Virus record (IMG/VR): IMGVR_UViG_3300045282_000062
Span: 1-60,447 of that record
Reading direction: 5' to 3' (one strand)
Origin: a virus
Taxonomy: Duplodnaviria; Caudoviricetes
DNA: 60,447 bases
Shown: positions 1,812-47,065 of the stretch, in pieces
Numbering within the stretch: the first letter of the stretch is position 1
Layout of the letters: each line of letters opens with the position of its first letter
Notes under the pieces: generated by a model
What the model was told of the DNA's origin: nothing
Database searches by the model: none
Seen by the model: only the letters and a program-made list of their open reading frames with translations
Made by a program: the position numbers and the translations under genes

Positions 1812-2144
1812 TTAAATATCAACATTTAAAGGTTTGTACCCTGGAAAAGCAGGTTTTTGCCGATTGTTTGCCTGTGTAATCCGGTCAGCCCACCGGCAAT
1901 TTGATTTTGAATAATTCCGGTTTACTTTGATCCTGTCTATTGTGTGTTTGAGCGTGGGCCTATCACCCATATCAGCTAAAAAATTTCGGAAATCATGCCA
2001 GCGCTTCATCACTTTGATACCCCGGGCGCCATACCATTTGTAACGGTTATTTGATTGATGATAACACCTACCCATCATAGCCCGCCAGCTGTTATATGTT
2101 GGTGTGCGCTTTCCTGCCTTCGCCTGTCCGTGATGTTTCGCCAT
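1812..2144 (-). CDS. HNH-type homing endonuclease-like protein
   Basis: YNSWRAMMGRC...YGARGI...IDRI...NYSKSNCRWA pattern typical of phage HNH proteins. Confidence 0.8.
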   Translation of the reverse strand: MAKHHGQAKAGKRTPTYNSWRAMMGRCYHQSNNRYKWYGARGIKVMKRWHDFRNFLADMGDRPTLKHTIDRIKVNRNYSKSNCRWADRITQANNRQKPAFPGYKPLNVDI

Positions 2145-2180: not shown

Positions 2181-2218
2181 CGATTACTGGTTAACTCTGA
2201 AGTACCCCTGACAAAAAT

Positions 2219-2806
2219 TTAAAGATCATCATCCGGGCCTGCGTTTGTTACTGTAGGCGCATCGATATTTGCAAATGCAGTTCCTACATCCACCCGGCCA
2301 CTAAATGGCTTATCATCCTTAGTTTTCATAATGTGATTCAGCCCCACGCCAATGCCCTTTTTACCTTTATCATACGAAAAGAAAGATAAATTAACATAGC
2401 CCCACATGCCGCTGTAGACTTCAGACTGCCTGGTGATGGGTTCGCGTGCAGTATTAACTACATTCGGCTGATCTTTTGAAGTCGCGTTTAAAATCCAATA
2501 TCCGGCGTATTCAGGGATTATTTTTGGATCTTCCCCCATAGGCAAATCGCCATCCTTTAATGGGCTTTTCATTCCATTAGGTTTCACGCCGCCCCATGTT
2601 TTCACGATACCAATTTCAACTGCCGCTGCGATTGCTTTGCGTATCTGATCAACAATAGCAACGCTTTTTTTCGGAATCATAATAGCAGATGAAAATTTCA
2701 AATCAGGGGAATTTTTACTGCGTTTGGCTACAAATGCATGAAGGTGGGAAAATCTGATTTCACCAATTGTGATAACGTTTGTGCTTGTCATGTTTGTGTC
2801 TGTCAT
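2219..2806 (-). CDS. DUF2815-type ssDNA-binding protein
   Basis: RFSHLHAF, PLKDGD, VYSG, GIGVGLNHIMK motifs, acidic tail; next to the polymerase. Confidence 0.85.
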   Translation of the reverse strand: MTDTNMTSTNVITIGEIRFSHLHAFVAKRSKNSPDLKFSSAIMIPKKSVAIVDQIRKAIAAAVEIGIVKTWGGVKPNGMKSPLKDGDLPMGEDPKIIPEYAGYWILNATSKDQPNVVNTAREPITRQSEVYSGMWGYVNLSFFSYDKGKKGIGVGLNHIMKTKDDKPFSGRVDVGTAFANIDAPTVTNAGPDDDL

Positions 2807-4014
2807 AATTCATCGTTTTGAATGTTAGAAAATGCTTGTTTCGTTTTATCAAGTGAATTTAATTCCGGGCGCGGATCAGTGGCAGGCACAAGTACCGGCG
2901 CGCCGGCAGGTTTGACAATATGATTAAATAGCAGGGTATTTAAATCTTTTTTACCTACTAATTTTTCCAAATCACCAATGCCTTTTAGTTTTGTGTTATA
3001 GATTTCGGCAATTTTAAAATTGTTTTTCACCAAAATCTGCGCAGCTTCATCAGGAAACGGTATAACCCGATTTGCGCGGCCTTCCACTAATTTAAACCCG
3101 GGCCATTTTGTGCCTTTGTTTGCTTCAGCCAGCGCGTATTCCTTTACGGCATCTATCCAGTTAATGAATAGCGGCGCCATATCCAGCACCTTTGCTGTGT
3201 CTGCGGGCGTTAAATGATTAGGATCTATCAAATCTTCTTTTACCATGCTGACGTTTGCAAATGCCACTTTGGCCAGATCCATATTGAAATCTTTTAACGC
3301 TTTGCAATGCACTTTTGCTTTACAAAATCTGCAATGTTCACCAGGCTGGTAATCGCCTTTGCCGTTGAACGCCATCAGCGCCCGGGGCCGTAGTTCAGCG
3401 TCAGCCCACGCCTTCAGGTCATTCACTGAAATTTCAAAATGGGATGAAGGTGATGCACTGGAAATGCGCGGCTGATAGATGATGATTTCGACCATTTGAA
3501 TATCATATAAATGTTCAAAATCATTCAGCCAGCCTAATGCATAAATCATGGCCTGTTTATTTTGATTTGAATCTACTTTAACACCTTTCCCATACTTCAA
3601 ATCAATGATGGATAATTTAGGCTGTGACACTATACCTGCGTCACCTGTGCCCCACGCATCAGGAACGTATGCAGACACGTCCAGCTTCCGTTCCAAAAAT
3701 AGCCGTGCATCCGGTGTAGTGGCCCGGGCTGCATTAAAATGTTCAATCACGAATTCTGCATAATCCGTGCAATACCCCCACATTTCAGTGTTATAATGTT
3801 TGTTTGCTTCAATGGGTATCAATGCTGCTTTGAAATCACGGTCCAACATTTCACCCGTTTTATGCAAAATCATTAGTTCACCTAATTTGTGGGCCAATAC
3901 ACCTTCATCTGCAAATTCACTGCTGCTTTCAGGGTATTTTAATTCCTGACGTGCTGATGGCGTACAGGCCAGCCAGCGTGATGCAGATGAAGGTGATAAA
4001 ATGGCATGGGTCAT
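2803..4014 (-). CDS. DUF2800 Cas4-like PD-(D/E)xK exonuclease
   Basis: HAILSPSSASRWLAC, GTGD, IIDLKYGKG, HCRFCKAK. Confidence 0.88.
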   Translation of the reverse strand: MTHAILSPSSASRWLACTPSARQELKYPESSSEFADEGVLAHKLGELMILHKTGEMLDRDFKAALIPIEANKHYNTEMWGYCTDYAEFVIEHFNAARATTPDARLFLERKLDVSAYVPDAWGTGDAGIVSQPKLSIIDLKYGKGVKVDSNQNKQAMIYALGWLNDFEHLYDIQMVEIIIYQPRISSASPSSHFEISVNDLKAWADAELRPRALMAFNGKGDYQPGEHCRFCKAKVHCKALKDFNMDLAKVAFANVSMVKEDLIDPNHLTPADTAKVLDMAPLFINWIDAVKEYALAEANKGTKWPGFKLVEGRANRVIPFPDEAAQILVKNNFKIAEIYNTKLKGIGDLEKLVGKKDLNTLLFNHIVKPAGAPVLVPATDPRPELNSLDKTKQAFSNIQNDEL

Positions 4015-4412
4015 AGATCATCATTTGCGGCCGGCGCAACGGTTTCAGCCTTTTTGATTTTTTCCAGATCCGCCATGAATGCTTCAAATTTGGACGGATC
4101 TATTTCAGATGTTTTTGCAGCACCGTGGGCGATAATCAGGGCTTTTACTTCCGTGCGCAGTCCAGCTTCACTTTTCGCTGTGGCGGCTTTACGTACATCT
4201 TCCAAAGTGAATTTGGGGGCCGGTTTCACGCCATTTGAAGCGGCTATATCTGCCTGCGTTACCTGAACGGGGGCGGCTGCCGGTGCTGCTTTTTCTTTTT
4301 TGGGTTTGTCAGCCGCGGGCGCCTGATTAGCGCCGGCATTTGATACCAGGGCTTTCAGCCAATCCATGGTTTCGGGTGCTAGTCTGATGACATGATCTAC
4401 TTTGATTTCCAT
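4011..4412 (-). CDS. Hypothetical replication-module protein
   Basis: Ala/Pro/Lys-rich linker plus helical C-terminus; coupled to the DUF2800 gene. Confidence 0.7.
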   Translation of the reverse strand: MEIKVDHVIRLAPETMDWLKALVSNAGANQAPAADKPKKEKAAPAAAPVQVTQADIAASNGVKPAPKFTLEDVRKAATAKSEAGLRTEVKALIIAHGAAKTSEIDPSKFEAFMADLEKIKKAETVAPAANDDL

Positions 4413-4573
4413 TTTTTGATTTGATTTTTAACGTTTAATAATTGGGTTTGCGAATATAGATGTTTGGTTAGTACTTTTTCCGGGCGCAGGACATTCTGAA
4501 TGCGCCAGTTATACATGGTACGGATGGAAATGCCTAAGAATTTTGCAGCTGCTTTTTTATTGTAATATTTCAT
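4397..4573 (-). CDS. MerR/excisionase-like HTH protein (likely start 4573)
   Basis: KKAAAKFLGISIRTMYNW helix-turn-helix. Confidence 0.75.
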   Translation of the reverse strand: MKYYNKKAAAKFLGISIRTMYNWRIQNVLRPEKVLTKHLYSQTQLLNVKNQIKKWKSK

Positions 4574-4701
4574 GGGGCCGTAAATATAAGCGGCAACAAT
4601 AGGCAAATCCAAATAAATTTTAACATTGTGCAAAAGATTTTTTAAAAGCCCACACTTTTAGATAATTGTTATAGTTACCACACAGATAACGCCTATCTTA
4701 A

Positions 4702-4947
4702 TCAAATCCTGCCCTTACTGGCAGTTTTTAATATGTGGGCTTTTCCTAATTTACGCAGCCACCTATGTCTGAAAACCTGATGCATAGGATGGCCATGTGC
4801 ATCCGGGCTGATCACTTTATAAATAATGTATGGCAGGCCGCTGACATCACCAATTTTATGTAGTCTTTGCATCTGGCGTTCGTAATTGCCGGAAACAACT
4901 TCCAAACAAAATTTGCTTTGTTTTTCTATGTGTAATTCAAGTCTCAA
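4702..4947 (-). CDS. Hypothetical protein
   Basis: ORF in a coupled operon. Confidence 0.55.
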   Translation of the reverse strand: MRLELHIEKQSKFCLEVVSGNYERQMQRLHKIGDVSGLPYIIYKVISPDAHGHPMHQVFRHRWLRKLGKAHILKTASKGRI

Positions 4948-17032: not shown

Positions 17033-17590
17033 TTAAGAAAGATATTCAAAGCAGTTAAATATCCCATCCGGGGTATTGTACGGCACCGGAATATCGTCAT
17101 TTGTCCACTTTACAGTCACGTCATACGTAACTTCATCAGTGGTAGGCGCCGTTACCGGGTTTTTAGGAATTATTTCTACTACTTTGTCCGAAAAATGTAT
17201 TTGGGTGGATGTGCGCCATGCCACGTAGTAATTGCGGCTACGTTTGAGTTCATTATAAAACTGCCCGTTATGTTCGCTATAATTCGGGTCTTTGTAATTC
17301 AGGGTGAAAATGTACCCATTCAGCTTTGTGACCTGATCACCATAGCCATCACTTTCCTGTTCAGCACCACCGTCAAACGTGCCATTTGTGGCAGGTATGA
17401 TGATGATCTGCTTTGACGTAATACCGTTCAGCCATTCCTGTGGGTTTGACGGATTAGTAAATACAAAATTCTTTTTGATGAATGCCACGCTACGTACACG
17501 GGCATTTTCTACCACACCGCAATCACTACAAAGATGATCGGGTATTTGGGCATCGCAATTGGACGGCGTATAGATATTGTAGTAGGCCAT
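17033..17590 (-). CDS. Putative major tail tube protein
   Basis: 185 aa, beta-rich, follows the head-tail genes, hairpin downstream (about 17014-17027). Confidence 0.6.
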   Translation of the reverse strand: MAYYNIYTPSNCDAQIPDHLCSDCGVVENARVRSVAFIKKNFVFTNPSNPQEWLNGITSKQIIIIPATNGTFDGGAEQESDGYGDQVTKLNGYIFTLNYKDPNYSEHNGQFYNELKRSRNYYVAWRTSTQIHFSDKVVEIIPKNPVTAPTTDEVTYDVTVKWTNDDIPVPYNTPDGIFNCFEYLS

Positions 17591-17619
17591 TTTAAAACAT
17601 TTTTTAGGTTATGAACGAT

Positions 17620-18174
17620 TTAAAGACATTTAGGTAGACAAACCGGATCAAATACCGCTTCTATTTGGTACGTGATTGAAAAAATATTTTGCTGCAATCG
17701 CATTTCATTCTGCACGCCCTGGTATTCAGCAGCATAAATCTGCGCTGAATTAAAATTTGCTGACAGCAGGCGCACGATCACGGATCTATAATTAGGCATC
17801 GCAATTACGTTTTGTAAATTCGCCTGTATGTAGTTCACAAGTTCATCAGCCTGCACCCCGCCCAATTTCTTTTTATCAAAGAAAATGTACATGGTATTTG
17901 AATAGGTATTGACCTGGAAACCTAACGAATCACCAAAACTGGACGGCCGGGTGCTAATTTGCAGGCCATTAGATTTGTGGTACAAAATCAGCGGGCTGGT
18001 GTCAGCAGCACCCACATAATTTGCATTTCCATTTTTATCTACGTAGCCTGGCATATTATCTGCGCCCCGTTTGACGTTTTCAGCAATACCGTCATACAAT
18101 TGCGCGCCAGTAAACTTTTCAAAGATCGGCTGTAGCTGGTTATTGATACACGCTATTAGTTCTGTCAGGTTCAT
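17620..18174 (-). CDS. Putative tail terminator protein
   Basis: Size and position. Confidence 0.5.
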   Translation of the reverse strand: MNLTELIACINNQLQPIFEKFTGAQLYDGIAENVKRGADNMPGYVDKNGNANYVGAADTSPLILYHKSNGLQISTRPSSFGDSLGFQVNTYSNTMYIFFDKKKLGGVQADELVNYIQANLQNVIAMPNYRSVIVRLLSANFNSAQIYAAEYQGVQNEMRLQQNIFSITYQIEAVFDPVCLPKCL

Positions 18175-18722
18175 TTTAATGTATCACCGGCCAGCTGATT
18201 TATTCTATCGTATGCGGCTTTTATTTCAGCTTCCGTTAAATCCCAAATTCGCCGCCCGTTATATGTTGCCTGTACCCACTGTGTTTTATCGAAATTCAGT
18301 GAGTTATTAAACCCCACCCCATAACCTTTTTCCGTGGCGATAATCGCATAATCATTTTCCAGCTGCCTGGTTAAACTGGCCACTATTTTTGTCTCACTAC
18401 TGCGATGATACTGCGGCCGCGGTTTTCCTTTTTCTATTCCTTTGGTGAAAACCCCTGTGGGTTTTGGCTGTCCTTTGCGCGGTCCTGATTTAAACGGCTC
18501 ATTTGTTTTAAAAATTCCTGTGCGCACAGCCATGTAACCTTTAGAGTATTCGCCAATCTGATTTCCATCGCTGGCAATACCATCCGTGTGAATTCGCCTG
18601 GTAATCGCTGCTATGGCGTCTGCCGCCACCGGGCGCAGTAGATATTCTTTATTATTAAGCTTTTCTACTGTTTTTGCCAGATTCGTCACCACTTCTTTTA
18701 AATGAATCTTTAAAGAAATCAT
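18171..18722 (-). CDS. Putative neck/tail completion protein
   Basis: Basic protein; RRIHTDG...G...IGEYS pattern; position. Confidence 0.55.
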   Translation of the reverse strand: MISLKIHLKEVVTNLAKTVEKLNNKEYLLRPVAADAIAAITRRIHTDGIASDGNQIGEYSKGYMAVRTGIFKTNEPFKSGPRKGQPKPTGVFTKGIEKGKPRPQYHRSSETKIVASLTRQLENDYAIIATEKGYGVGFNNSLNFDKTQWVQATYNGRRIWDLTEAEIKAAYDRINQLAGDTLK

Positions 18723-19222
18723 GGCAGCTGTATTACTTCCGTATAGTCACCCCCTTCCGGCAGGCAGCATGTTCGCACATCTACCAGCTTTATTGCCTTC
18801 GCTAATGCCGCTTCATATTCAGCTGTATAGTAATTTAATTGCTCTTTAGCTTCGTCCCGGGTCACTGTAGTAAAATAGTTTAACCGGGGCGAATACAGTC
18901 TGAATAGCATTATTTGGGCGCCTAAAGCATATTTCCACGCCGTTAAAAGAACTTTTCTGTTAAGGCAAATCAAATTTTCGTAATCGCAGTATGGTCGAAT
19001 CGTGTAGCACTGCATCAAAGCGTTAAAAAAATCCAGGCTAAACCTGTCCCACGCTTCCGTCTGCACATCTGCCCACACATTCAAATACGTAATTTGTTCA
19101 GCATTTGCCGTGCTGTCTATAGCTTCTATAGATACCCCCGGAAGGGAATTTATGTAAACCCCACTTTCCGGGGGCGTTGTATTGCAGCCCTTAATCCCAA
19201 TATAGTCCGTTAAACAATTCAA
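18719..19222 (-). CDS. Putative head-tail adaptor
   Basis: Directly after the capsid gene; 7 Cys. Confidence 0.55.
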   Translation of the reverse strand: MNCLTDYIGIKGCNTTPPESGVYINSLPGVSIEAIDSTANAEQITYLNVWADVQTEAWDRFSLDFFNALMQCYTIRPYCDYENLICLNRKVLLTAWKYALGAQIMLFRLYSPRLNYFTTVTRDEAKEQLNYYTAEYEAALAKAIKLVDVRTCCLPEGGDYTEVIQLP

Positions 19223-20371
19223 TTAACGGGGGTATCCATACGCATACGTATGTGGATCAGTAGGCTGATTAGTTAAATAATACATCAATGTGCCGTTCGT
19301 GTCATACAGCGGATCTGTAGTCTGATATGCGTCAGCAGGCTGCACCCACAGGGCGTAACGTTTGCTGATGATTACCTGCCAGCCACGGTTAACACTTTGG
19401 CTATTTCCAGCCACGGTCAGCGTAGTGGGGCAATCAATGTAGCGCATCTGCATATCAAAAATCAAATCACGCAGACAGTCATCAGCATTACAGCTGAAAA
19501 CTTCCACAGGCATAGGCAGCATCGTGAAAAAAGACGTGCCTTTAGGGCCGGCGCCCCATCCCTGATAGGCGTTACGGCCAATAAATTTCACGCTGCCAGG
19601 GGCAAACAGGCCTGCTGTATCCGGTCCCCAAATCTGCTGCGTATCCTTATCGAAAAAGAACTTTGGCAAACCGGTTTTGGAAAAATCCATGCCGGCCGCA
19701 TTGCAGCACTGAAGCAATTGCGATGCATTCCACGCGGACCATAATCCACCGCCTACCAGGCACGGATCACCGCAGATTTCATTTTCCTGAATATCGCGTA
19801 GCATATCAATAATGCCGTTATCCAAAACGAATTTTGCGCCATCCTGATCCACATTTATCACCTTACCATGGCTTTGGCCAGTGGTCACATTCACACCGAA
19901 ACGGGTCAGCATCTGTGTCACCAGATCCTGATTGATAGCGCGCATTACCACATTTGCAGTTTCATACATGCGTTCGTACACTTCGCGCATTACAGTGGTG
20001 GGCGGGCGTCCTGCCTGCCGGCTGCTGGCGAAATCAGCACAATACTGCGCCATGGTGGCGTCATCGATGAAAAAAGAAGATTTTTTAAACCCTAAATTTG
20101 GCAGGGTCCATTCCAAATAGGACGGAATGCGGTCCACATTACAATCATCCGTAGATGATACCTGACTAACTACAGGGCGTTTGGTGTACGATACAGTCAG
20201 CGGGCGGATGTTGGGGCCATCGAAACCGCTATTGACAGGATTTACTAACGAATTCTGGCAACAAAAGAGCATTGCCAGGAAACCGGCAATTTGCATTTTA
20301 CGGCCCGGGGCGTTTCCTTCAGCAACATCATTTATGCTGGTAAGTAGCGCAGGGCAAAAGCCTTGTGACAT
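19223..20371 (-). CDS. Putative major capsid protein (Cys-rich)
   Basis: 382 aa, downstream of a scaffold-like gene; 12 Cys. Confidence 0.72.
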   Translation of the reverse strand: MSQGFCPALLTSINDVAEGNAPGRKMQIAGFLAMLFCCQNSLVNPVNSGFDGPNIRPLTVSYTKRPVVSQVSSTDDCNVDRIPSYLEWTLPNLGFKKSSFFIDDATMAQYCADFASSRQAGRPPTTVMREVYERMYETANVVMRAINQDLVTQMLTRFGVNVTTGQSHGKVINVDQDGAKFVLDNGIIDMLRDIQENEICGDPCLVGGGLWSAWNASQLLQCCNAAGMDFSKTGLPKFFFDKDTQQIWGPDTAGLFAPGSVKFIGRNAYQGWGAGPKGTSFFTMLPMPVEVFSCNADDCLRDLIFDMQMRYIDCPTTLTVAGNSQSVNRGWQVIISKRYALWVQPADAYQTTDPLYDTNGTLMYYLTNQPTDPHTYAYGYPR

Positions 20372-20422
20372 ATCAATAAATTTTAGGTATGGTAAATAAA
20401 TGTATTTCTAACTGTCTGAAGG

Positions 20423-21418
20423 TTAGACGACTGAAGCGGATGGGGCTGTGGCTACGTTTTTCATAACGTCACCCATAACCTCTTTCCACACAGATCCTGC
20501 GCCCTTATCGGGGCTATTCTGATTGTTGCCAGCGGCATTATTCCGGCCGTTTTGGTTGCCATTGTTGCCCGCGGCATTAGTCGGGCCTGAAGTGCCATTA
20601 TTGTTGCCAGCCCCATTCTGGCCATTGGGTGGGGTAATCAAAAGTAATTTATTGTTAGCCAGTACTTTTTCAGTGTACTGCTGTGCATTTACTTGTTCAT
20701 TATTTTCGTGGTAGGTGCTGCCATCTACTTTGGTCAAAACTACGCTACCTGCGTCATCAAAATCGAATTTCAACCCCTTCGCCCGCATATCATCCTGTAG
20801 TAAAGTTTGCAGGGCTATACGCTTTGCGGCTGGTGGCAGGGTGTCAAATGTTGTTTTATGGGGCGATAACATGGAATCAATTGCATACCGCAATTCCACG
20901 TTTTTAATGTCTTTTTTATTGCTTTCAATCAGCGCATCGTGCCGTTGTTTGGCCTGCACGATTTCCTGGTTTAGCCTTATGATGTCATCCTGTAGCGTCT
21001 TTTTATCGCCGCTGCCAGCGGTCGCCAGCTTTTCATATTTCTTTTTCAGCTGCGCACCGAGTACGCCGATCTTCTTAAATGAATTTTTTTCCGCAGCGAT
21101 GGCGTTTTTGTCATCATCTTCAGTCAGTCCCAATTCGCCCAAAAGATCATCAATAGTTTTATCCACCGCGTTTAGGGTGGGCGCCACGTAATGATTTTTC
21201 AGATCCTGGTGATTGTTTTTGGCTTCCGAAATGCTGATCAGCTGCGCATTGATTGTTTTAACCACATCTTCAGGTACATCGATTGCAGTCAGGGCGTCAC
21301 TTCCGAAAAATGCTTTGAATTTATCATCTTCCGTATTGATTCCACTTTTCTTTGCAATGTTCTTTAAAATATCCTGAAGATTCATACTACTTTTTTGGTT
21401 TTGGTTTTGGACGGCCAC
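20423..21418 (-). CDS. Putative capsid scaffolding protein
   Basis: Charged coiled coil with a low-complexity Asn/Gly tail; precedes the capsid gene. Confidence 0.68.
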   Translation of the reverse strand: MAVQNQNQKSSMNLQDILKNIAKKSGINTEDDKFKAFFGSDALTAIDVPEDVVKTINAQLISISEAKNNHQDLKNHYVAPTLNAVDKTIDDLLGELGLTEDDDKNAIAAEKNSFKKIGVLGAQLKKKYEKLATAGSGDKKTLQDDIIRLNQEIVQAKQRHDALIESNKKDIKNVELRYAIDSMLSPHKTTFDTLPPAAKRIALQTLLQDDMRAKGLKFDFDDAGSVVLTKVDGSTYHENNEQVNAQQYTEKVLANNKLLLITPPNGQNGAGNNNGTSGPTNAAGNNGNQNGRNNAAGNNQNSPDKGAGSVWKEVMGDVMKNVATAPSASVV

Positions 21419-29785: not shown

Positions 29786-30022
29786 CTAATCCAGTGGCTG
29801 TTTAAGCCCCATTTTTTGTTTCACTTCATCAAATAGTATGCCCGGCACCTGTCCGGGTATTTCTTTTTTATGATCATTTAGGCCATAGAAAATTTCATCA
29901 GGTATGCCATCCACCGGAAATGCCGGACACGTACCATCTTCAATATCGAAATGAATACAGGCGAAACATATCGGACGGTCATATATCATGGGCGTAATAA
30001 TTTTAAAGTCTCTGCTTTCCAC
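29786..30022 (-). CDS. Small Cys/His protein, candidate immunity partner
   Basis: CFACIHF...CPAFP..GIPDEI..G.NDH; overlaps the end of the MuF-like gene. Confidence 0.6.
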   Translation of the reverse strand: MESRDFKIITPMIYDRPICFACIHFDIEDGTCPAFPVDGIPDEIFYGLNDHKKEIPGQVPGILFDEVKQKMGLKQPLD

Positions 30023-31911
30023 ACGCTGAATTTAGTACCTGTGCCCTGCACAAAATCGGTATAGTAAGTTTGCAGCATTGTGTCACCTATTTCCGTGGCC
30101 AGTTCGCGGGGCTTTGGCGCGCCAATATATTCGGCCCATCCTTCAGCAATCATTTCAGCTTTTAATGAACTTGCACTAGCTGATCGGGCGCCGGCTGTGG
30201 CCGCGTATGTACTTAATTTTGTAGCCACTGATGGTTCACCTAAAGCCCGTTCACGATTATAAATAGCATTGAATTCGGGCGAATTTCTAAACCCTGTCAA
30301 TTTATCAATTTCGTGGCCGTATTCGTGCGTCAGGATCTGCTGATAATCCTGCGTACCCGGCACCCACCAGCCATTTGCTATTTGCTTTTCTACATGCGCG
30401 ATGTAGTCAGTTCTATTTATTTGTTGTTCGTTTGCGTACACGCCGGTATATTTTGCCAGTTTAAGCGTTTTACCTTCGTTAGTATAATCCTGATATTGTA
30501 CACTCATGGCGTGTGTGGTTTTGCCCCACGAAACGGGCGCTGATCTGGCGAATTTAGCCGCAGAATTGTCAGCCACTTTTTGCCCATACAATTTGACATA
30601 GTTTTGATACCGGTCCAAAGATTTATAGAAAGTGAGCGCATCCGCTTTTATTTGGGTTTTCATGGCCTGTAAACTGCCTGTGCCGGTTATTTTGTAATCT
30701 TTAAAAATGGCCAGCTGATCATGTAGCTGCTGATTCATCTGATTAGCGGCTGTTAAATTCAATTTCCCGTAATTCACAAAATCCAGTCCAAGTGATTTTG
30801 CGTAGGCATTCGCTTCAGCAATAGTGGTGGCTTCTTTAAAATCAGGCAGCTGCCTGGTGGCAGGCGCTGGTGCCGGCGCAGGTGCCGGCGCAGGGGGCGG
30901 CACTGGCTTCGTATCTGCCGGGGCTGGTGATGGCGGCGGTTCAGGCTTTGGCGCCGGCACGGGCACTTTGCCCACATTCACGGCAGCCATCACCCTGTTA
31001 TATGTTTCCGGGTCCGTCTGCTGCACGTACTGATCAGTCACCGGCCGGGGCTGGTGCCCGCAGTTATACCCACCTAACAATATCAGAAAATTAGCCGGCG
31101 TTTCGGTCGGATACATACCCTGCGGCAATCCTGTCTTATCGTATAGCGGCACCTTTGTCAGTTCGCCTGTTTTCTTATCTGTGTAATACAGGCCATCAGC
31201 TTTCATCAAAGATGGTATTTCGGACACATGGAAAAACCGGCGTTCGTGCATCGCTATGCAAAATGGCCGGCTGGTTTCTATCAAAGAATTCGCGTAGTCA
31301 TACCATTGAAAATTCAAATCATCTGTCACCGTCTTTGTGTACTGCCTGGTGAATTGATTAATGGCATCCGTAGTTATCTGCCGGACGTATTTAGTCAGCA
31401 GGCCATCATCTTTACTGGTATCCGTCAAAGTTTTCCGCAGCTGGTTTTCCAAACTTTTATACGATCCGCCAGCTGTAATACCTGTCTGTAGAATTTGTGC
31501 TATTTCATCAGCGATATTCGGCCCCACGCCATTTTCTGTTAGCGAATTCACGGTATCCTGGACGGCCTGCGTCCTGATTTCGCGCAGCAGTGGCCCCGGG
31601 GTAAATGAAGCTTCCACCGTTTTCCAATAGGAATTCTGCAAGGTGGCCACTGTCTGATAGGTATCTACAAATTGTTTGACCTGATTTAAATAGTCATCCG
31701 TCATAATCAGGCCATCCAACTTTCCTTTAATACTGTTAACAATTTTAATATTGTTAACTGTAGTTTTGATATCATCATTGGCGTCCGTGTCCAGCCGTTT
31801 CAATTGCTGTAGGATACCATCTAACATATCCTGCTGGATACCCGGAATGCCGGCGTTAAAATCCGCAATGGATTTATTGATAAGCTTTACGATATCATTA
31901 AATGTGGCCAT
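29986..31911 (-). CDS. MuF/gp7-like minor head protein with a C-terminal HExxH domain
   Basis: After the portal; SRPFC and GGYNCGH, Pro/Ala linker, HEYGH and EMIAEGW. Confidence 0.75.
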   Translation of the reverse strand: MATFNDIVKLINKSIADFNAGIPGIQQDMLDGILQQLKRLDTDANDDIKTTVNNIKIVNSIKGKLDGLIMTDDYLNQVKQFVDTYQTVATLQNSYWKTVEASFTPGPLLREIRTQAVQDTVNSLTENGVGPNIADEIAQILQTGITAGGSYKSLENQLRKTLTDTSKDDGLLTKYVRQITTDAINQFTRQYTKTVTDDLNFQWYDYANSLIETSRPFCIAMHERRFFHVSEIPSLMKADGLYYTDKKTGELTKVPLYDKTGLPQGMYPTETPANFLILLGGYNCGHQPRPVTDQYVQQTDPETYNRVMAAVNVGKVPVPAPKPEPPPSPAPADTKPVPPPAPAPAPAPAPATRQLPDFKEATTIAEANAYAKSLGLDFVNYGKLNLTAANQMNQQLHDQLAIFKDYKITGTGSLQAMKTQIKADALTFYKSLDRYQNYVKLYGQKVADNSAAKFARSAPVSWGKTTHAMSVQYQDYTNEGKTLKLAKYTGVYANEQQINRTDYIAHVEKQIANGWWVPGTQDYQQILTHEYGHEIDKLTGFRNSPEFNAIYNRERALGEPSVATKLSTYAATAGARSASASSLKAEMIAEGWAEYIGAPKPRELATEIGDTMLQTYYTDFVQGTGTKFSVWKAETLKLLRP

Positions 31912-33980
31912 TATTTAGCCGCCACGGGGCGTATCACTAAACTATTCCCGTGCAGACTTCCGTCCTGGTTAGTACCTGTTAATTGCGACTGCTGCCCGGG
32001 CTGCGCGCCGACTGCCGGGGGCGCTGCTGCATTGCCGGCCCCTAACGCTGCATCATCTTTTACTACTACCCTTTCCTGTCCTACTGCGCTAATCGGAATA
32101 ACGCGGGCAGCCGCCGTGTTTGCGTCTATTTGTTCTTTTGCGTATTTTTTCATCACCGCTTTCTGATCTTTCAGATTCTTATCCGCAAATTTGTCATCTT
32201 CATCTAATGCCCGCTGCACGAATTCCTGGATATTGCTGCTGATAACATAAGTTTCCTGCGTCACGCCTTTACTGGCCAGCATTCCTAGTTTCGCGTCATC
32301 TGATATATTCGGCAGCGGATCTAATTTTAGCACCAGCACCAGCCTGTCACGCACATCAGGGACCAAACTAAACCGCTTTGAGCAATATTCTATTTCCATA
32401 GCATTCAAAATAACCGGGTTAACCTTGTTCGTTTTCGCATCTGCCAATTCTTTTTCAGCCGTGGCGATGTATAAAATATCAAAGTTTTCCGGCACTGCGA
32501 TTTTAGGCAGCATATCATCTTCAATATCATCCGCAGGATACAGCGCGCCATACCGGTACAGGGCTATAATTTTCATGCAGCTATCCATGGCAGCTACAAT
32601 ATCTTCCGCCACGCCATGCGTGAAATTGTTACTTTCATCCCTATCCACCGCCTTTGCCACGCCTGCCTGCGTCAGCGGGGTGTCAGCCATAAATTGAAAA
32701 TTTATAGCTGCAAGCGCATTGTATAGATGTTGTTCTACTGATTCATCCTGGTATTTAACGGTGGCAACATCTTTTTGAATGTAGCCAGCTGGCGGCGTGG
32801 GCGCTGGTGTCTGACCTTCCAAAGTACTGGACGGCCTGACAATCATTTTACCAAATGGCCCGGCATTTACTACCACACCTAAACCTTTACAATCTTCGCA
32901 TTGCACGGTTTCGGGGCAATTGCAGTTTTCTGTCCACGATGGATTATGTAAAAAACCGTTACCCTTACAATGCGGGCAGTTTACATTTGAATACTGCCAG
33001 CGTTCAGGATAGATATTTAAAACTTTTGCCGCTTGCAGGTCACTGTATTCGCGGACCGCTTCATTTAATTCCGGCAGCATGCCAGCTACTTTGCTTTCAT
33101 ACATGAATTCATCGCCAGCCTGATCAACTAAAATCCCTTTTAATTTGAACGCTGGCAATACACCCAAACCATGCGTAAATGGATAGCCGGGTGAATCAAC
33201 ATAATCACCTTTGCCGTTCGACTGATCATAGCGGAAAATCTGCTGCGTAGTCACTACATAGAAACTGTATCCTGTATGGGCGGTATTTCGGACATAATAG
33301 TTACAGCCTTCAGGAATATTTAAAACGCAGTAATTTCCTTCCGCGTAATCTATGACATCTTCGCTATTAAAAACAGTGGGAAATGGTTTGTAATATTCGT
33401 TATCAGCTTTAACCAAATCCAATGGCTGAATATAAACTACTGCATTCGGGTCCACCAAATATTTGCGCAGCATCGCTGTAAAAATCCAGTTCGTTAATTC
33501 ACCAAAATAAGGAAATTCATGGCATGTATAATGTTCTAAAGTTTCTTCATCTGCTATTCTGGAAAATTCATTTTTATTCGCCCACAATATGGACCAATCA
33601 GATGACCTACGGATTTTTTGCAGCGCTGTCAGTACTTTATTAAACGTGGGTTTTGTTTTCGCTTCATAAATTTGATACCGGTAATCAAAAACAACTTCCG
33701 GTTCATTCGGGCGCCTATCTTTAATTAATTTACCGGGAAAAATGCCGTCTGCATGCACACGCAGCGTTCCTGCATGCCACACAGACATCCTGTAGAATGT
33801 ATGCATGATACCGGGCAGCGGCCTAAATTGCGCGGCTGCATTTTCCAGGCCCACGCCAGTATTTTGATCAGGTAAATTCGGATCACGGTCAAATAAATAA
33901 CTGAATTCATTACGATGCAGACGCGCTACGGCATCTGCATAGTTATCTATTTCTACGGGGGTGAATTCTAATTTAACCAT
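31911..33980 (-). CDS. Putative portal protein with a CxxCxGxG insertion
   Basis: 689 aa upstream of the MuF-like gene; AGVAKAVDRD portal-like motif. Confidence 0.72.
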   Translation of the reverse strand: MVKLEFTPVEIDNYADAVARLHRNEFSYLFDRDPNLPDQNTGVGLENAAAQFRPLPGIMHTFYRMSVWHAGTLRVHADGIFPGKLIKDRRPNEPEVVFDYRYQIYEAKTKPTFNKVLTALQKIRRSSDWSILWANKNEFSRIADEETLEHYTCHEFPYFGELTNWIFTAMLRKYLVDPNAVVYIQPLDLVKADNEYYKPFPTVFNSEDVIDYAEGNYCVLNIPEGCNYYVRNTAHTGYSFYVVTTQQIFRYDQSNGKGDYVDSPGYPFTHGLGVLPAFKLKGILVDQAGDEFMYESKVAGMLPELNEAVREYSDLQAAKVLNIYPERWQYSNVNCPHCKGNGFLHNPSWTENCNCPETVQCEDCKGLGVVVNAGPFGKMIVRPSSTLEGQTPAPTPPAGYIQKDVATVKYQDESVEQHLYNALAAINFQFMADTPLTQAGVAKAVDRDESNNFTHGVAEDIVAAMDSCMKIIALYRYGALYPADDIEDDMLPKIAVPENFDILYIATAEKELADAKTNKVNPVILNAMEIEYCSKRFSLVPDVRDRLVLVLKLDPLPNISDDAKLGMLASKGVTQETYVISSNIQEFVQRALDEDDKFADKNLKDQKAVMKKYAKEQIDANTAAARVIPISAVGQERVVVKDDAALGAGNAAAPPAVGAQPGQQSQLTGTNQDGSLHGNSLVIRPVAAK

Positions 33981-33983
33981 GAT

Positions 33984-34838
33984 TTACATTTTATCCCTGA
34001 CGGTGGGTAAAAAAGATTTTTTATCGAGTATCGAAAACAAATGTTGCAGCCCAATTTTACTGCATGCAGCGCTGGCCAAACGGTCATACATCTTTTTGAT
34101 CGTATTGCTATTGCGATTGCTGCCAAAACTCATTATATAATACTTTTCATAGAGTTCACGCGGCGGCGGCACGATCATATGATTTAACTGGTGCCAGTAA
34201 GAAGCTTTCCATTTATAAATATGCGGTGATATGCCGGCTTCAGCTGCTGCGATATTTACGCCCAATTCATCAGGCACCGCATGTGCAAAATTAGACACTG
34301 TAGCCAGCCCATGATTTTGCGTAATTTCCAGCGCCCTGTTAATGATCTTTGCCCCTTCCTGATTATAGTACATGAATTCTGTGCGCCACTGATGCATGGG
34401 GGCTTTGAATTCATATTTAGTACGCGCTTCGCCAGGATCACACCAAAAATAGTATAGCCCTGTGTCACCTTCCTTGCCTTCCGTCACACCAGTAAAATTA
34501 ACATCTTTTAAGCTTTCAAATAATTCGCTAGGTTTCTTTTCAGGTAGCCAAAGCGTATCGGCGTCAATTACCAGGTTGTTTTCAAACGGGCTGTATTTAG
34601 GCACATGCAATTTAGCGCAGGTATTGGCCGGCACTTCCGGCCCCACTTCAATTATTTCATCGAATACCTTTATTTGATGTTTGCCGATATGATTAAGCGC
34701 GATGCCGCTGTGCAGCACTGCGATATTTACAGATGATTCTACCGCTTTGATCGATGCAGCCAGCGTAAACGCCATACGGCCATACTGTGGGTGTCCCACA
34801 GCCACTATACAGATTCCGTTTTTATATTCTATACGCAT
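33984..34838 (-). CDS. GT-A (GT8-like) glycosyltransferase
   Basis: LAASIK, VIDADTLW (DxD), VPDE. Confidence 0.72.
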   Translation of the reverse strand: MRIEYKNGICIVAVGHPQYGRMAFTLAASIKAVESSVNIAVLHSGIALNHIGKHQIKVFDEIIEVGPEVPANTCAKLHVPKYSPFENNLVIDADTLWLPEKKPSELFESLKDVNFTGVTEGKEGDTGLYYFWCDPGEARTKYEFKAPMHQWRTEFMYYNQEGAKIINRALEITQNHGLATVSNFAHAVPDELGVNIAAAEAGISPHIYKWKASYWHQLNHMIVPPPRELYEKYYIMSFGSNRNSNTIKKMYDRLASAACSKIGLQHLFSILDKKSFLPTVRDKM

Positions 34839-36025
34839 GGGCCAAAATATGAATAACTAAATGATGGATCACCAAAACCATTAATGTATGTGGGCGCTGC
34901 CGGGGCCGTCTGCATAGCACACACACGCCGCGCAAACCCATTAGGCAAATAAATCGTGATGTAGCTGCCATTGCAATCCAAATAGGTTGCATTGATATGG
35001 CCACCCACGCCTGCGCCTGGGCACGGAATACAACTATAAAGTAAATCATACAGGCCGCAAAGTGATGTTTCCGGGGCCGTGGCAAAATCCACTTCAATAT
35101 AATTGCTGGCCGTGCTGTCATCGTGATTATTTGATGGACCGGCGCACTGACTACGCACAAAAACTTTATAATTCGTGGCCGGCGTCAAACCGGTTAGACT
35201 GATCGGGCTGCCGCTGCTATTGCCATCTAATTGGAAAACGCCACCTATATACAGCTGGAAATAGTAGTGGTCAGGCGCTGGCGATGGCGGGGTAAAATGA
35301 ATTTCAGCGCTAGTGGTAGTAACATTCTGCATGTTTACACCAGTAGGCGCCAGGCAGCTGGAAACTTGTGTGCCATTGATATCACCACTTACTGTGGCTT
35401 CATCATAACTGCCATCGCTACAGGTCACGCGGTATGTTACCAGCACGATGCCGTTCGCATCCGGCAGATTCGTTTTAACATGCACAGTAACTTTGCCCGT
35501 TTGATCAATTACTGCGCTGTCTAAAAAATCAGTATTGTATGTAGTTATCGAAAACGTGGCAGGAAAGCAGCAAATTTTATCATTTGTTTCCACCTGAATA
35601 TTGTGCGTAGTGTTTTCGTCTAACGCAGCAGGAAACACATCATTTACCAGGTCCAGCTGCTGCGCTTCATCGCAGGTCATACAGTTACTATTGGTGCCGT
35701 CAAACGGTGTCACATCAGCGTTAAATGCACCTTTGGCTAGTGGATAGTCCAGCAGTTTGACCCAATCCACAGTATAGTCACCGTTTTTAGAAATACCGCC
35801 CACGTATTTATCAGATTCGATTTGCACAGTGTCATGCGCTAGGGCTATATTGATTCGTTCATGCCATTTTTCCGGCAGGTTATCCGTTTCGCCATCATAT
35901 CTTTTGGTGATGACTACGGACAGCGTTTTTATCGTGCCGTCACTTTTGGTAAATACCTGCTTTTTTTCCGGCCATTGGGGCCGTAAAATCTGCATGGGCA
36001 TTCTAATCCTGTTGCGGAATGACAT
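34829..36025 (-). CDS. Cys-rich tail protein with Ig/FN3 domains
   Basis: CLAPTGV...LTGLTPATNYKVFVRSQC FN3 signature; 13 Cys. Confidence 0.7.
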   Translation of the reverse strand: MSFRNRIRMPMQILRPQWPEKKQVFTKSDGTIKTLSVVITKRYDGETDNLPEKWHERINIALAHDTVQIESDKYVGGISKNGDYTVDWVKLLDYPLAKGAFNADVTPFDGTNSNCMTCDEAQQLDLVNDVFPAALDENTTHNIQVETNDKICCFPATFSITTYNTDFLDSAVIDQTGKVTVHVKTNLPDANGIVLVTYRVTCSDGSYDEATVSGDINGTQVSSCLAPTGVNMQNVTTTSAEIHFTPPSPAPDHYYFQLYIGGVFQLDGNSSGSPISLTGLTPATNYKVFVRSQCAGPSNNHDDSTASNYIEVDFATAPETSLCGLYDLLYSCIPCPGAGVGGHINATYLDCNGSYITIYLPNGFARRVCAMQTAPAAPTYINGFGDPSFSYSYFGPCV

Positions 36026-36103
36026 TTTTTACTATATTTGATTTGGTAAATTTTCTTTGTTCCAAGCTAAAAGCATCGGCCTGCATTTTTATGCGGGCTT
36101 CTT

Positions 36104-36385
36104 TTATTGCATGATGTTGGAAAATTCACGGCCATACAATGCCACGTAGTAATTTAAATTTGTCCTTACGCAGTTTTTTATCCTTTCTTCCACCGTCAAA
36201 TCAGGCCGCGCTGCCAGGAATTTATCAATTTCTGCAATCAGCGCCGGATCATCCTGCGCGCTGTCAAACACATCAGCCGGATCAGTGTCCAGTGGGCACT
36301 TAGTTATGTAGATCCAATCAGGGCGATAATTACCGAAATCAATACGGCCCTGATTCTGATTGATTTTAAAACCGTTTAAGTCCAT
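36104..36385 (-). CDS. Hypothetical protein
   Basis: ORF followed by a hairpin at about 36079-36098. Confidence 0.55.
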   Translation of the reverse strand: MDLNGFKINQNQGRIDFGNYRPDWIYITKCPLDTDPADVFDSAQDDPALIAEIDKFLAARPDLTVEERIKNCVRTNLNYYVALYGREFSNIMQ

Positions 36386-36391
36386 AACACT

Positions 36392-37147
36392 TTAATTTAT
36401 TTTTACAAAACCTGACGCACTGCCGCCCAAATCGATATCAATCTGCGTAGGCGGAAACGCATCCAAAGTAACTGACAGGCCTGCATCGATCAGCGTGCCT
36501 GTATCATCATAAATCCACACGCTGACAGTGGGCGCTATGCCATATTTGGCCTGCATGGCTGCTGTGTACGGTATTGCCAGGGTCAGCTGGTTAGTGAATT
36601 GAATAAATGTTGGATCACAATCATCACCGGCGCCATCTACACTTTGATTCGCCCCCGCGCAATATGAAAATCCAAAAGCATTATCTTCATTGCCATAATC
36701 CAAAATGCTGGTGTGGCAGATGCCGTCTATCCGGGTAAAACAATTGCTGCAAAATTCATAGGTGCTGTAAAGTACCTGAATTTCTATTTTGATTATGAAG
36801 CAATCGGCCACACTGAAAACGGAATCAAAGCCCACCAAACCGCCTGTGCAATTATACAAAATTGTTTTTGGCCCGATCCTGAAGCGTTCAGTTTTCCATG
36901 GAAAAGTTACCATTAAATTACTGTCACAATGATCAGTCAGCCCAATGGTCACTAAATCATTTTCCAAATCGCACAGGGCGTTTGCTTCATCTTCAGTATC
37001 GGTATTAATGAAAAATTGCCAGGCTACATCACTGGCGGTGTAAACTGGCAGGCACATATTAATGATCCTGAAATTGCATGAAAGCACTTCGCTTGATTCG
37101 CCAAACTGGACGAAACTATGCTTTGGCGATGCGATTGATAGCGGCAT
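36392..37147 (-). CDS. Cys-rich tail tip protein
   Basis: 11 Cys; C-terminal DLGGxxxG domain shared with three other ORFs. Confidence 0.62.
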   Translation of the reverse strand: MPLSIASPKHSFVQFGESSEVLSCNFRIINMCLPVYTASDVAWQFFINTDTEDEANALCDLENDLVTIGLTDHCDSNLMVTFPWKTERFRIGPKTILYNCTGGLVGFDSVFSVADCFIIKIEIQVLYSTYEFCSNCFTRIDGICHTSILDYGNEDNAFGFSYCAGANQSVDGAGDDCDPTFIQFTNQLTLAIPYTAAMQAKYGIAPTVSVWIYDDTGTLIDAGLSVTLDAFPPTQIDIDLGGSASGFVKIN

Positions 37148-39379
37148 TTATACGGTCCATTTTTTACGTAAAACAATGTGGGCAGTGCCCAAATTCGGCT
37201 GGTATTTTATTTCCTTTATCCATCCTTTTTCAAAATCTGCACTGCCACACTGATAGCTGATATAGCCATAGGGATTTAATTTTATCTTTTTATAGTCGCC
37301 CAATGCCATAGGGTAATCAAATTCTACAGATTCATTTCGCCACAGCGGCGTGGCGTCCAAAGGATCTGCAAACTGTGTAGGCGCTAAATTTTGGTTTTCC
37401 TGTATGGGTAAATTTTCCAGCCGGCAACTGCCCCCATATATGGCGGCTAACTCACCTTTGGCTAAAATATTACCTGTACCGGAATTAAAACTAAGCCTAT
37501 TATCCGAATCAACAATATTTGGAAAACTGGCAGCAATGCTTCTAAACCATCTGAATAGATTGCGGACCGGTGAAATTCCGTAATTCAAAACTGATGTGGG
37601 TGAAAAAATATTTTCAGGCGCAGATACGTTTCCTTGTTCCACGATCATCTGCCCATACGGATATCCGTAGCCTGATGAATTCCTGGTAAGCAGGACAATA
37701 AAAGTATCATCATCATAGCTGGTATCCGCTGCATTGGTGTCATCAAATTGTTGTTCACGGGTAATTTCTATGGCGTATTCACCGGCCACCAGCCCGCTGG
37801 TGATATCCAACTGCGTTTTAATAGAATCTAATGGCGTGCGATACTGTCTATCGGAATTGAATTCGTCCAATCCGAAATTATTTAAGGTTTTCCATTTTTT
37901 ATACCCAATGTTAACTGTATTGTAGGCCCGGGCTTCCTCTATTGTTGCTTCCACTACAGGGATGGCCCCGCAGTTCATAATTTCTTTGTCCTGGTAGAAA
38001 TAGTCAAGTGATTCCACCCGGCATAATATGTTTCCTTCAATGTCAGGATCAGTTTCCAGCCCCATGCCGATATTATCAATGGCCTGTAGCCCTTCAATTA
38101 ATTCTTTTAAACTTGCAAAAAATGTAGCGTTTGGGGCGTTACGGATCTTCAGCCCACTGGTAACAAAACGCAGGCCGCCGCAGCCATCTGTATCAAATGC
38201 AAATGGTTCACTGTCTTTACGGCCATAGTATGTACTTTTTACCCGGCAGCAGCTATTGGTGATGGCTTCCGTCATACGGCTAAGTGTTTCGTGGATCAGA
38301 TACCCTTTAGTTTCTGTGGGCGGGCACCCCTTAATTCCTACAGCGCTAAAAAATGATTCCTTATCAAAACTTACCTGCCCGTTTGGTACACTTGATTCAT
38401 CCACTATGATCTGAATCAAATGAAAAATATTATCTGTGCCGCTGGCTACGGGCGTCCAGCTGTAGACAGGAAAAGTATGATCAAATGTTACATTGGGGTT
38501 ATCAATGCCCGGATTAATTAAATCTGTAGATTCAATAATATCCAAAGTATTTATATCAGCAATATCGCCCCGGATCATTAGGATCTTAGCGCTGGCGTGT
38601 GACCCGATCAGTGTCAATCTGCCCTTCAGGCGCCCTGTCACTGTGATGGGGCTGGTAAAACATTGTATGTTAGCTTCATCAAATAACACCTGACTGCTGA
38701 CTATCGGGCTTTTGCCCGGCGCGTCTGCCAGCACGATGTACCCCACGTTTTCGCCCTGCACTAAATGTGATTGCTTTATATTATTATTCGGATTGTTGCC
38801 GTATTCCGGGCGCACCCATATTACGGCGTCACCATGATGGGATGCAGGAAATTCAATTGGTTCTACATCGCCCGCGTCTACCACAGTTCCTTCCGTCCTG
38901 TAGTCCAGCTGCCTGGTAGGCAGTTCAATATTTTCACCTAAAAAGTTATACGGATTTAGGACCGTCACGCCATCAAAGCCCACACCCTTGTCAACATCTA
39001 TCTGCTGATCATACTGATTATTCAGGATAGTTTCACACGTCACGCTTTCAATGGCTACACTTATCGTGCATTCGTTTCCGCAGGCTTTGTGGTAAGTGCC
39101 CATATTTACTTTGCCCACAAGTACGTCCTGGTAAATGCCGTCATCATCACCACACAGCGTTTGCAATTTAAAAACCACTTTGGCTTTCAGCCCCTGTGCC
39201 GTTTTCACGCTTTCCAAATATGCCGCGCCATCACCGTAAAACTGTAGCGGGCTGGTAGTGCTTTCCAGCCCTATGCCATGATTTTGGTCATCACGCACAA
39301 TGGACAGTTCTAAACTGTCCATGCCTATTGGTTCTTCCACCAATACATCATCTAAAAATACTTTGTAAGTCAGGCCCAT
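37148..39379 (-). CDS. Tail tip/baseplate hub-like protein
   Basis: 743 aa downstream of the tape measure; EEPIGMD start, FGLDEFN motif. Confidence 0.65.
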   Translation of the reverse strand: MGLTYKVFLDDVLVEEPIGMDSLELSIVRDDQNHGIGLESTTSPLQFYGDGAAYLESVKTAQGLKAKVVFKLQTLCGDDDGIYQDVLVGKVNMGTYHKACGNECTISVAIESVTCETILNNQYDQQIDVDKGVGFDGVTVLNPYNFLGENIELPTRQLDYRTEGTVVDAGDVEPIEFPASHHGDAVIWVRPEYGNNPNNNIKQSHLVQGENVGYIVLADAPGKSPIVSSQVLFDEANIQCFTSPITVTGRLKGRLTLIGSHASAKILMIRGDIADINTLDIIESTDLINPGIDNPNVTFDHTFPVYSWTPVASGTDNIFHLIQIIVDESSVPNGQVSFDKESFFSAVGIKGCPPTETKGYLIHETLSRMTEAITNSCCRVKSTYYGRKDSEPFAFDTDGCGGLRFVTSGLKIRNAPNATFFASLKELIEGLQAIDNIGMGLETDPDIEGNILCRVESLDYFYQDKEIMNCGAIPVVEATIEEARAYNTVNIGYKKWKTLNNFGLDEFNSDRQYRTPLDSIKTQLDITSGLVAGEYAIEITREQQFDDTNAADTSYDDDTFIVLLTRNSSGYGYPYGQMIVEQGNVSAPENIFSPTSVLNYGISPVRNLFRWFRSIAASFPNIVDSDNRLSFNSGTGNILAKGELAAIYGGSCRLENLPIQENQNLAPTQFADPLDATPLWRNESVEFDYPMALGDYKKIKLNPYGYISYQCGSADFEKGWIKEIKYQPNLGTAHIVLRKKWTV

Positions 39380-42875: not shown

Positions 42876-43022
42876 GGCCCGAATTTACTGCATTTTCTTT
42901 TAGAATGTCACCTATCTTTTTGTCTAATAGGAACATGTAGCCTAAAATATCCATCTTTTCAAATTCCTTCAGCCGCACAGGATCTTCATTTGCCAGCCAC
43001 CACATTTGCGAAAACCTGCTTT

Positions 43023-45318: not shown

Positions 45319-45350
45319 AACGTGAATTTATGGAATTACTTAATGAGTAC

Positions 45351-47037: not shown

Positions 47038-47065
47038 GGTGGGTTATTTTACTGGTTTAATTTCA

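Follow-up and report, generated by a model that had tools for sequence, protein, structure and literature searches.

Genome organization

The window analysed here, 60,447 bases in length, is the entire IMG/VR virus record IMGVR_UViG_3300045282_000062, an uncultured soil phage assembled from a metagenome, and the subject of this report is the near absence from it of the trinucleotide GAG and its complement CTC. The record is a complete virus genome in which the terminal 127 bases are a copy of the initial 127, leaving a unique circle of 60,320 bases. Nearly all open reading frames (ORFs) lie on the minus strand, and scans against PHROG and Pfam provided names for a family-A DNA polymerase, a Gp2.5-like single-stranded DNA-binding protein (SSB), a DUF2800/PD-(D/E)XK exonuclease, a VirE-type primase-helicase, an SNF2 helicase, the small and large terminase subunits, the portal, tail genes, a CHAP lysin and three small nucleases. 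Neither a DNA methyltransferase nor a known anti-restriction gene was found among the ORFs compared with PHROGs (58 + 36) and with Pfam (40 + 10), and tRNA and Rfam scans of the 60.4-kb genome returned nothing. The genome is mosaic: only the two parts of a structural module (Table 1) are common to the portal relatives G066-G070, at 31-60% identity, and in its replication, early and lysis genes the phage bears no relation to these structural relatives.

Extent of the GAG and CTC depletion

On the plus strand of the whole genome there are 33 GAG and 75 CTC trinucleotides, where base composition predicts 646 and 1030, which places both words below every other one of the 64 trinucleotides. With the strands pooled and the expectation conditioned on dinucleotides, 108 sites are present against 915 expected (ratio 0.118), and the next lowest trinucleotide is CGA/TCG at 0.65. 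The original prediction, made by eye from the letters alone, had described two segments as free of both words, and a recount agrees in each case, giving 0 + 0 in 2198-4942 against 28.8 + 43.6 expected (72 by base composition) and 0 + 0 in 12001-12600 against 9.2 + 8.1 expected. The depletion is thus confirmed, and it is stronger than had been reported.

Codon choice does not account for it, as the original prediction had argued. When codons were permuted synonymously within each of 55 ORFs (200 shuffles), the coding DNA held 502.1 +/- 16.9 sites, with a minimum of 456 in any shuffle, against the 73 observed; for off-frame sites only, the corresponding values are about 459 and 30. Codon use itself is strongly skewed, with GAG serving for 30 of 735 glutamate codons and CTC for 13 of 1,243 leucine codons. 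Controls that preserve dinucleotides and controls that preserve codons therefore both fail to reproduce the counts. The claim that both strands and all frames are affected also stands, and extends to off-frame positions, to all modules and to non-coding DNA: the ratio is 0.09-0.16 in each of four genome parts, 0.10 in the shared structural parts combined, and 0.24 in DNA outside ORFs of at least 100 amino acids. The depletion is not confined to one end of the genome or to an early region, as a first-injected, motif-free leader would have it. All NGAGN contexts are depleted, from 0 (CGAGA, CGAGC, CGAGG and GGAGA) up to 0.39 (TGAGT), and the flanking base matters, in that CGAG stands at 0.015 and GAGT at 0.27, with GAGA the most depleted 3' context.

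It is hardly credible that an assembly or sequencing artefact, or ordinary codon usage, lies behind these figures. Codon-preserving shuffles do not give the depletion, the invariant glutamates of the portal are kept, and contigs from three more soil runs, belonging to other studies, contain pieces identical to the genome, which is present in full in its probable source run; depth gaps in runs represented by contigs only were given no weight. Variant stretches from another soil run, comprising 218 bases at about 82% identity, contain no GAG or CTC (40 changes seen among 323 listed differences), which fits a shared avoidance, with little power.

The density of the two words is not entirely even. 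The longest site-free stretches fall among structural genes, and there is one island of near-normal density (Table 1), which has a Poisson probability of 3.9e-8 relative to the genome mean in a scan of some 1,170 windows. The original prediction held that accessory segments relax the depletion and that word density marks recently acquired DNA, citing 58081-58560 (4 GAG and 6 CTC, 10 sites) and 27220-27760 (1 and 5, 6 sites). Both claims can be retained for the island at 58051-58550, which is probably recently acquired DNA with the purge still to come, but not for the second segment, where the overlapping scan interval 27351-27850 holds five sites (P = 0.0022) and fails when the number of intervals scanned is taken into account.

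The island also contains a 14-base exact direct repeat, at 58264-58277 and 58547-58560, the copies lying 283 bases apart, which may be a trace of acquisition of the segment or a promoter pair. As a wider motif it can be set aside, as only these two exact copies are present and allowing one mismatch yields no more copies than chance would.

Comparison with relatives and the likely host

A single-protein scan of viral contigs found no close relatives, and among GenBank phages none matched the phage DNA and portal sharing was no better than one 26% partial match. Comparisons were based on a portal profile (A1), with search sets of 80 IMG/VR loci, 80 metagenome loci and 15 loci in GTDB genomes. 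All five complete relatives have GAG/CTC ratios of 0.76-0.90, with 747-1166 sites as against 108, all 80 IMG/VR portal loci lie at 0.52-1.19, and the median over all 174 loci of at least 2 kb is 0.86. The replication module gives the same picture, since the 80 loci with a related primase-helicase (40-48% identity) all have ratios of 0.58-1.62, with a median of 0.92. Forty chromosomal samples of 20 kb, each drawn from a different genome in the family of G001 (Chitinophagaceae, the likely host family), range from 0.62 to 1.13, with a median of 0.80, and the low counts are thus not a property of chromosomes of the likely host family, at least in these samples. The depletion has therefore been inherited neither from the phage family nor with the replication module, and it does not reflect a host-like composition; these comparisons support its being specific to the lineage of this phage.

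The portal provides the closest view of how the words are avoided. Residues that are invariant across its family, seven glutamates among them, are retained, and in 17,578 residue pairs identical between the phage and 65 relatives' portals there are 530 in-frame GAG or CTC codons in the relatives and 0 in the phage. A further 9,196 identical dipeptides in the same 65 portals contain 184 sites in the relatives and 0 in the phage, for a sum of 714 against 0. These alignments support the view that the protein has been conserved while its codons changed. Elsewhere in the portal family we note another strong trinucleotide depletion, in the IMG/VR locus L077 (5,583 bases), where GCG/CGC is at 0.24 of dinucleotide expectation.

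The host is probably a soil member of the Chitinophagaceae. Judged by their titles, nine of the 15 portal loci in GTDB genomes are in Chitinophagales (Chitinophagaceae, Taibaiella, Puia, Ferruginibacter and Flavihumibacter), the other six being in further Bacteroidota, and some of these loci sit within contigs of 0.6-1.2 Mb.

Other words avoided by the phage

GAG is the most extreme of a series of words that are rare in this genome when measured against codon shuffles and the five complete relatives. Among words free of GAG and CTC, strong depletion affects 5 of 128 tetramers and 16 of 465 pentamers; relative to the five relatives, the ratios are 0.23 for CGAC, 0.26 for CAAC, 0.40 for CAAG and 0.43 for GGGA, and for longer words 0.06 for CGACG, 0.07 for CCCAG, 0.10 for both CAAGA and AGACC, and 0.05 for CTGCAG. 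In the relatives, the only strongly depleted tetramers and pentamers are words containing CTAG, plus CCCCC in one of them. Of the six-base palindromes with an expectation of at least 5, 11 are absent from the phage and 8 more are below 0.2 of expectation, whereas the relatives lack only 1-3. This broad loss of words is a classical signature of restriction avoidance, although unusually broad here, and the many other restriction-type words avoided are the main reason for reading the GAG purge as selection by DNA-targeting defences.

Recurrence in a second clade

Five metagenome loci have GAG/CTC ratios of 0.15-0.44 (L157, L156, L154, L170 and L168), and a sixth, L169, stands at 0.56, giving a range of 0.15-0.56 over the six, on contigs that are 4.8-15 kb long. 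Codon shuffles of the first five showed that all are depleted off-frame too; in L156, for example, the off-frame sense strand has 6 GAG against 38 and 1 CTC against 51. In a FastTree phylogeny of 146 portals, with long branches, the six loci form one clade (local support 97) whose sister, L172, has a ratio of 1.00, and the phage is placed elsewhere, on a long branch among entries with ratios of 0.59-0.97. Since the phage is remote from the depleted clade and the sister of that clade is not depleted, the depletion would have arisen at least twice in that tree, although a FastTree topology with long branches is not proof. A further word, CAG/CTG, is avoided in L156 and L157 (0.27-0.41) and over-used in the phage, so that the agents acting in the two lineages are likely to be similar and not identical. 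The same two loci over-use AAG/CTT about twofold.

Proposed selection by a host DNA-targeting factor

The explanation that we favour, with moderate confidence, is that a factor of the host which targets DNA and has GAG as its core exerts selection on a phage whose general counter-defence is the loss of target words. Four patterns together favour a defence that reads DNA: counts far below the codon and dinucleotide nulls, retention of the protein while codons change, specificity to the lineage, and avoidance of palindromes by a phage in which no methyltransferase was found. What the data show is the depletion, the fact that coding constraints do not produce it, its lineage specificity and its independent recurrence; that a host factor is the cause, and what its nature might be, we infer. 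Selection against a host DNA-targeting system had been proposed in the original prediction, and the same findings speak for it, while the strand asymmetry described below is left unexplained.

Under this explanation selection on the DNA itself would purge GAG and CTC throughout the genome, mostly through synonymous changes and in part through loss of glutamate. The candidate factor would harm the phage with a modest probability at each site, so that each site lost pays, and would prefer C or G on the 5' side of GAG and a base other than T on the 3' side. A phage with no detected DNA methyltransferase may counter host defences by shedding their words, GAG being the shortest and most extreme. 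That all modules have been purged alike (0.09-0.16) despite the unrelated replication module, with one near-neutral island, fits a continuing genome-wide pressure.

The form of the factor that we prefer would be restriction-type enzymes (Type I, IIB, IIG and similar) for whose recognition domains, of the adenine-methyltransferase type, GAG is a half-site of 3 bp. Should numerous alternative partner half-sites be in circulation among the hosts, lasting escape would require loss of the constant half-site. Recognition domains that read GAG are documented in the Type I systems EcoAI, EcoEI and StyLTIII and also in PpiI (Loenen et al., 2014; PMC3874165). In such Type I and IIB systems, as with EcoAI (GAG N7 GTCA), the 3-bp half-site GAG is recognized by a modular domain, which can recombine with domains for other half-sites; none of the papers that we found describes avoidance of the half-site alone.

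Several observations weigh against selection by such a host factor. We know of no restriction-modification, BREX, Dnd or CRISPR system whose recognition word is just 3 bp long. A short-match search for the host, in which 19,190 of the 60,447 bases were compared with 401 genomes of the family, gave short matches only, and the two best ones examined, of 38 listed, fall outside any tandem repeat array. For the preferred half-site form in particular, Rusinov et al. (2018; PMC6286503) report no avoidance of Type I or IIG sites. The remaining difficulties concern the sites that survive, the loss of glutamate and the asymmetry between the strands, and are taken up in turn.

Surviving sites

The 108 sites that persist could in large part have been lost, as for 68 of 75 coding survivors one synonymous substitution would suffice. 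A restriction enzyme that is efficient and all-or-none would therefore not have been escaped, and the agent needs to act with a low probability per site. Since so many coding survivors are one synonymous change from removal, the surviving sites look like the outcome of new mutations offset by a modest cost per site, unlike the all-or-none escape that is seen for 6-bp sites.

Other accounts of the survivors were considered and rejected. Only 7 of the 75 are mutationally locked codon pairs (Met or Trp followed by an AGY serine codon), and four folds of survivors as parts of hairpins gave z-scores of -1.6 to +0.9, which are unconvincing. GAG and CTC do not appear to be reserved as a gene-start word or Shine-Dalgarno sequence, as the 40-nt regions preceding the 59 gene starts contain only four sites, in scattered places.

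Glutamate loss and mutation pressure

Over 28,547 aligned columns of shared proteins, glutamate makes up 5.05% of residues in the phage and 6.64% in the five relatives, which are not independent of each other. The ratio of 0.76 (24% less) is the lowest of the 20 amino acids, and the replacements are mainly aspartate and glutamine. A loss of this kind despite the availability of the synonymous codon GAA could also result from a mutational push, and context-specific mutation at the G of GAG, by a deaminase, decay of methyl-cytosine or a lesion, is an alternative which this loss and the enrichment of CAG/CTG in the phage (1.44-1.79) would both suit. We nonetheless regard it as quite improbable. 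The products expected from transitions are themselves low instead of enriched as an editing footprint would have them (AAG/CTT 0.67-0.81, GAA/TTC 0.86-0.93), and CAG/CTG enrichment of up to 1.80 is also found in relatives that lack strong GAG loss. Moreover, retention of glutamate depends on the next base, at 0.41 where A follows, 0.38 for T, 0.33 for C and 0.24 for G, whereas aspartate is flat at 0.44-0.50. This order tracks avoidance of GAAG (0.61) and GAAC (0.55) and not the hazard set by the flanks of GAG, and therefore points to selection on words as opposed to mutation specific to GAG. The many unrelated palindromes that are avoided likewise indicate selection.

Strand asymmetry and single-stranded targets

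The two strands are not affected equally with respect to coding sense. Off-frame on the sense strand, CTC is at 0.03 and GAG at 0.11, CTT and TCT are both depleted (0.48 each) and TTT is enriched (1.58); over all frames, CTT is at 0.61 in the sense strand as against 0.93 in the antisense strand, and TCT at 0.62 as against 0.77. Asymmetry in the same direction was found in the five depleted relatives that were tested. While the original prediction of a double-stranded depletion is borne out in that both strands are depleted, a purely double-stranded picture does not explain why CTC is rarer than GAG in the sense strand or why CTT is low in that strand only, and the asymmetry hints at a component that is single-stranded or acts at the level of RNA. 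It would be expected from a reader of single strands, or from a lesion or nick whose consequences for transcription are greater in one strand than in the other.

An agent that reads single-stranded nucleic acid, preferring CTC over CTT, could be a DarT-like single-stranded DNA ADP-ribosyltransferase, a single-stranded DNA nuclease or an mRNA interferase. Both strands would be exposed to it in replication, and the sense strand more so, in transcription or as mRNA. The sense-strand bias in the phage and in the depleted relatives is what such an agent predicts, and DarT enzymes read 4-base motifs in single-stranded DNA with two or three fixed bases, DarT1 favouring two G residues one base apart (PMC11543638). 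The known specificities fit poorly, however. The DarT2 motif TNTC is not avoided (TATC 1.03, TGTC 0.95, TTTC 1.21), with only TCTC low at 0.02, and a general preference for G-N-G does not agree with GTG at 1.14, GCG at 1.06 and GGG at 0.82, none of which is depleted. A factor acting on RNA only could give neither the roughly 5- to 10-fold antisense depletion nor the depletion of non-coding DNA. Overall we consider a single-strand reader to be unlikely.

Alternative DNA-reading agents

A possible, if rather doubtful, source of the selection is a widespread and undescribed activity with 3-bp specificity, be it a defensive nuclease, a nicking enzyme or one that modifies bases, which would act with a small probability per site and would have reshaped several phage lineages independently, this phage being the genome-wide extreme, with an effect that reaches its proteins as the 24% reduction in glutamate.

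The agent could also be encoded by the phage itself, if GAG were avoided as the target of its own nicking nuclease of short specificity, used on host DNA or in packaging, for which the small HNH-type gene (Table 1) is a candidate. In phages, HNH endonucleases act as strand-specific nickases that recognize 3-7 bp, and one of them, N.phiSal2, nicks GAG^CA (Xu & Gupta, 2013; PMC3592412). Their words are very short, asymmetric and strand-specific, although avoidance of their own sites is not reported for those phages in the part of that paper available to us. The candidate gene is without a counterpart in four of the five complete relatives, which are not depleted, and the fifth has one that is 34-37% identical. 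Its product matches PHROG HNH families only, with no Pfam or PDB sequence match, and the gene does not adjoin the terminase genes; nor could a single nuclease account for the many other words and palindromes that are avoided. Such self-avoidance therefore seems a rather improbable cause.

Avoidance of a CRISPR protospacer-adjacent motif (PAM) would require a host type I system with the 3-nt PAM GAG/CTC, in which fewer PAMs would mean fewer usable protospacers. The length of the word and its depletion on two strands suit a PAM, and PAM depletion in phages has been reported, with a word of 2-3 nt rare, as here, because host immunity needs it (Kupczok & Bollback, 2014; PMC4246573). The case differs from ours in that no CRISPR system or spacer is linked to this phage: the host search described above gave no spacer match in the 401 family genomes for the 19 kb searched, within the limits on the matches examined. 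The 108 PAMs still present would be ample targets, so that selection on each site would be weak, and neither the dependence on flanking bases nor the strand asymmetry is expected of a PAM, which would also leave the many other avoided words unaccounted for. We therefore consider this a very improbable explanation.

Selection by a host factor with a GAG core may be set beside two further kinds of word avoidance. Like the avoidance of orthodox Type II restriction sites in phages (Rusinov et al., 2018; PMC6286503), it involves short words that are lost on both strands and in all frames without protective methylation, and the phage also shows the classical form in the 11 six-base palindromes that it lacks. 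In the avoidance described there, the words are mostly 4-6-bp palindromes of orthodox Type II systems, whereas the main word here is asymmetric and 3 bp long, and about 100 sites are left instead of none. The depletion of TC in animal viruses attributed to APOBEC3 (PMC7449416) resembles the present case in the graded cost per site of a word of 2-3 nt, in its extent over the whole genome and in its effect on amino-acid usage; editing gives rise to the APOBEC3 footprint and enriches its product words, and here the expected products are not enriched. We found no report in the literature of GAG/CTC or trinucleotide avoidance in phage genomes, although searches for 'GAG' are swamped by retroviral Gag and such a report may have been missed.

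Word avoidance in phages serves to infer host defences, and the known cases are of 4-6-bp restriction sites. A near-complete purge of an asymmetric 3-bp word needs selection able to rewrite at least about 800 sites (915 expected as against 108) and to lower glutamate. The strength of the purge therefore implies either a short-word reader outside the current catalogue of defences, or escape from combinatorial Type I-like specificities by removal of a half-site. A concrete handle is available, in that GAG-free and GAG-rich DNA could be compared in Chitinophagaceae, and a simple statistic computed over viral contigs could locate such a reader.

Further features of the genome

The site-free stretches, the island, the small nuclease genes and the segments shared with relatives are collected in Table 1.

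Table 1. Coordinates of features of the phage genome discussed in the text
Feature	Coordinates	Strand	Remarks
Site-free stretch of the original prediction, between sites at 2195 and 4943 (2,748 bases)	2195..4945		Gp2.5-like SSB, DUF2800/PD-(D/E)XK exonuclease, small ORFs
Longest site-free stretches, 34152-37451 (3,299 bases) and 37937-41079 (3,142 bases)	34152..41081		Structural genes
GAG/CTC island, 10 sites in 500 bases, near-normal density	58051..58550		YopX-family gene 57901-58347 and spacer upstream of gene
Small HNH-type endonuclease gene	1812..2144	-	phrog_374, 5.8e-38
GIY-YIG homing-type endonuclease gene, wedged between two large structural genes	39370..39705	-	Present in 3 of 5 complete relatives
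Small endonuclease gene next to SNF2 helicase	50533..50832	-	phrog_93
Shared structural module, part 1	17033..21418	-	Basis for like-for-like comparison with relatives
Shared structural module, part 2: head morphogenesis, portal (31911-33980), tail genes, terminase	29986..48694	-	

Between the two structural parts, at 22253-26556, lies a cluster that is present in none of the five complete relatives and encodes a radical-SAM protein, an FkbM-type methyltransferase, GT2 glycosyltransferases and genes of unknown product. It may glycosylate or modify virion proteins or some other substrate, and no link to DNA was found.

An exact direct repeat of 471 bases occupies 1-471 and 58907-59377, and the flank preceding it is 89% identical between the copies over 300 bases. 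The C-terminal third of the DNA polymerase has a second, diverged copy, the two ORFs concerned being 58568-59563 and 59982-60447, the latter running into 1-1617. In the assembly graph of the source run the 471-base unitig has a depth of 39, as against 17.5 and 19.9 for its neighbours, and the duplication therefore looks real and not a slip of assembly.

No Shine-Dalgarno signal is seen in the 40 nt that precede the 59 gene starts, and positions -14 to -10 are A-rich (A in 28-35 of the 59 genes) and G-poor. An A-rich upstream region lacking a Shine-Dalgarno sequence fits Bacteroidota.

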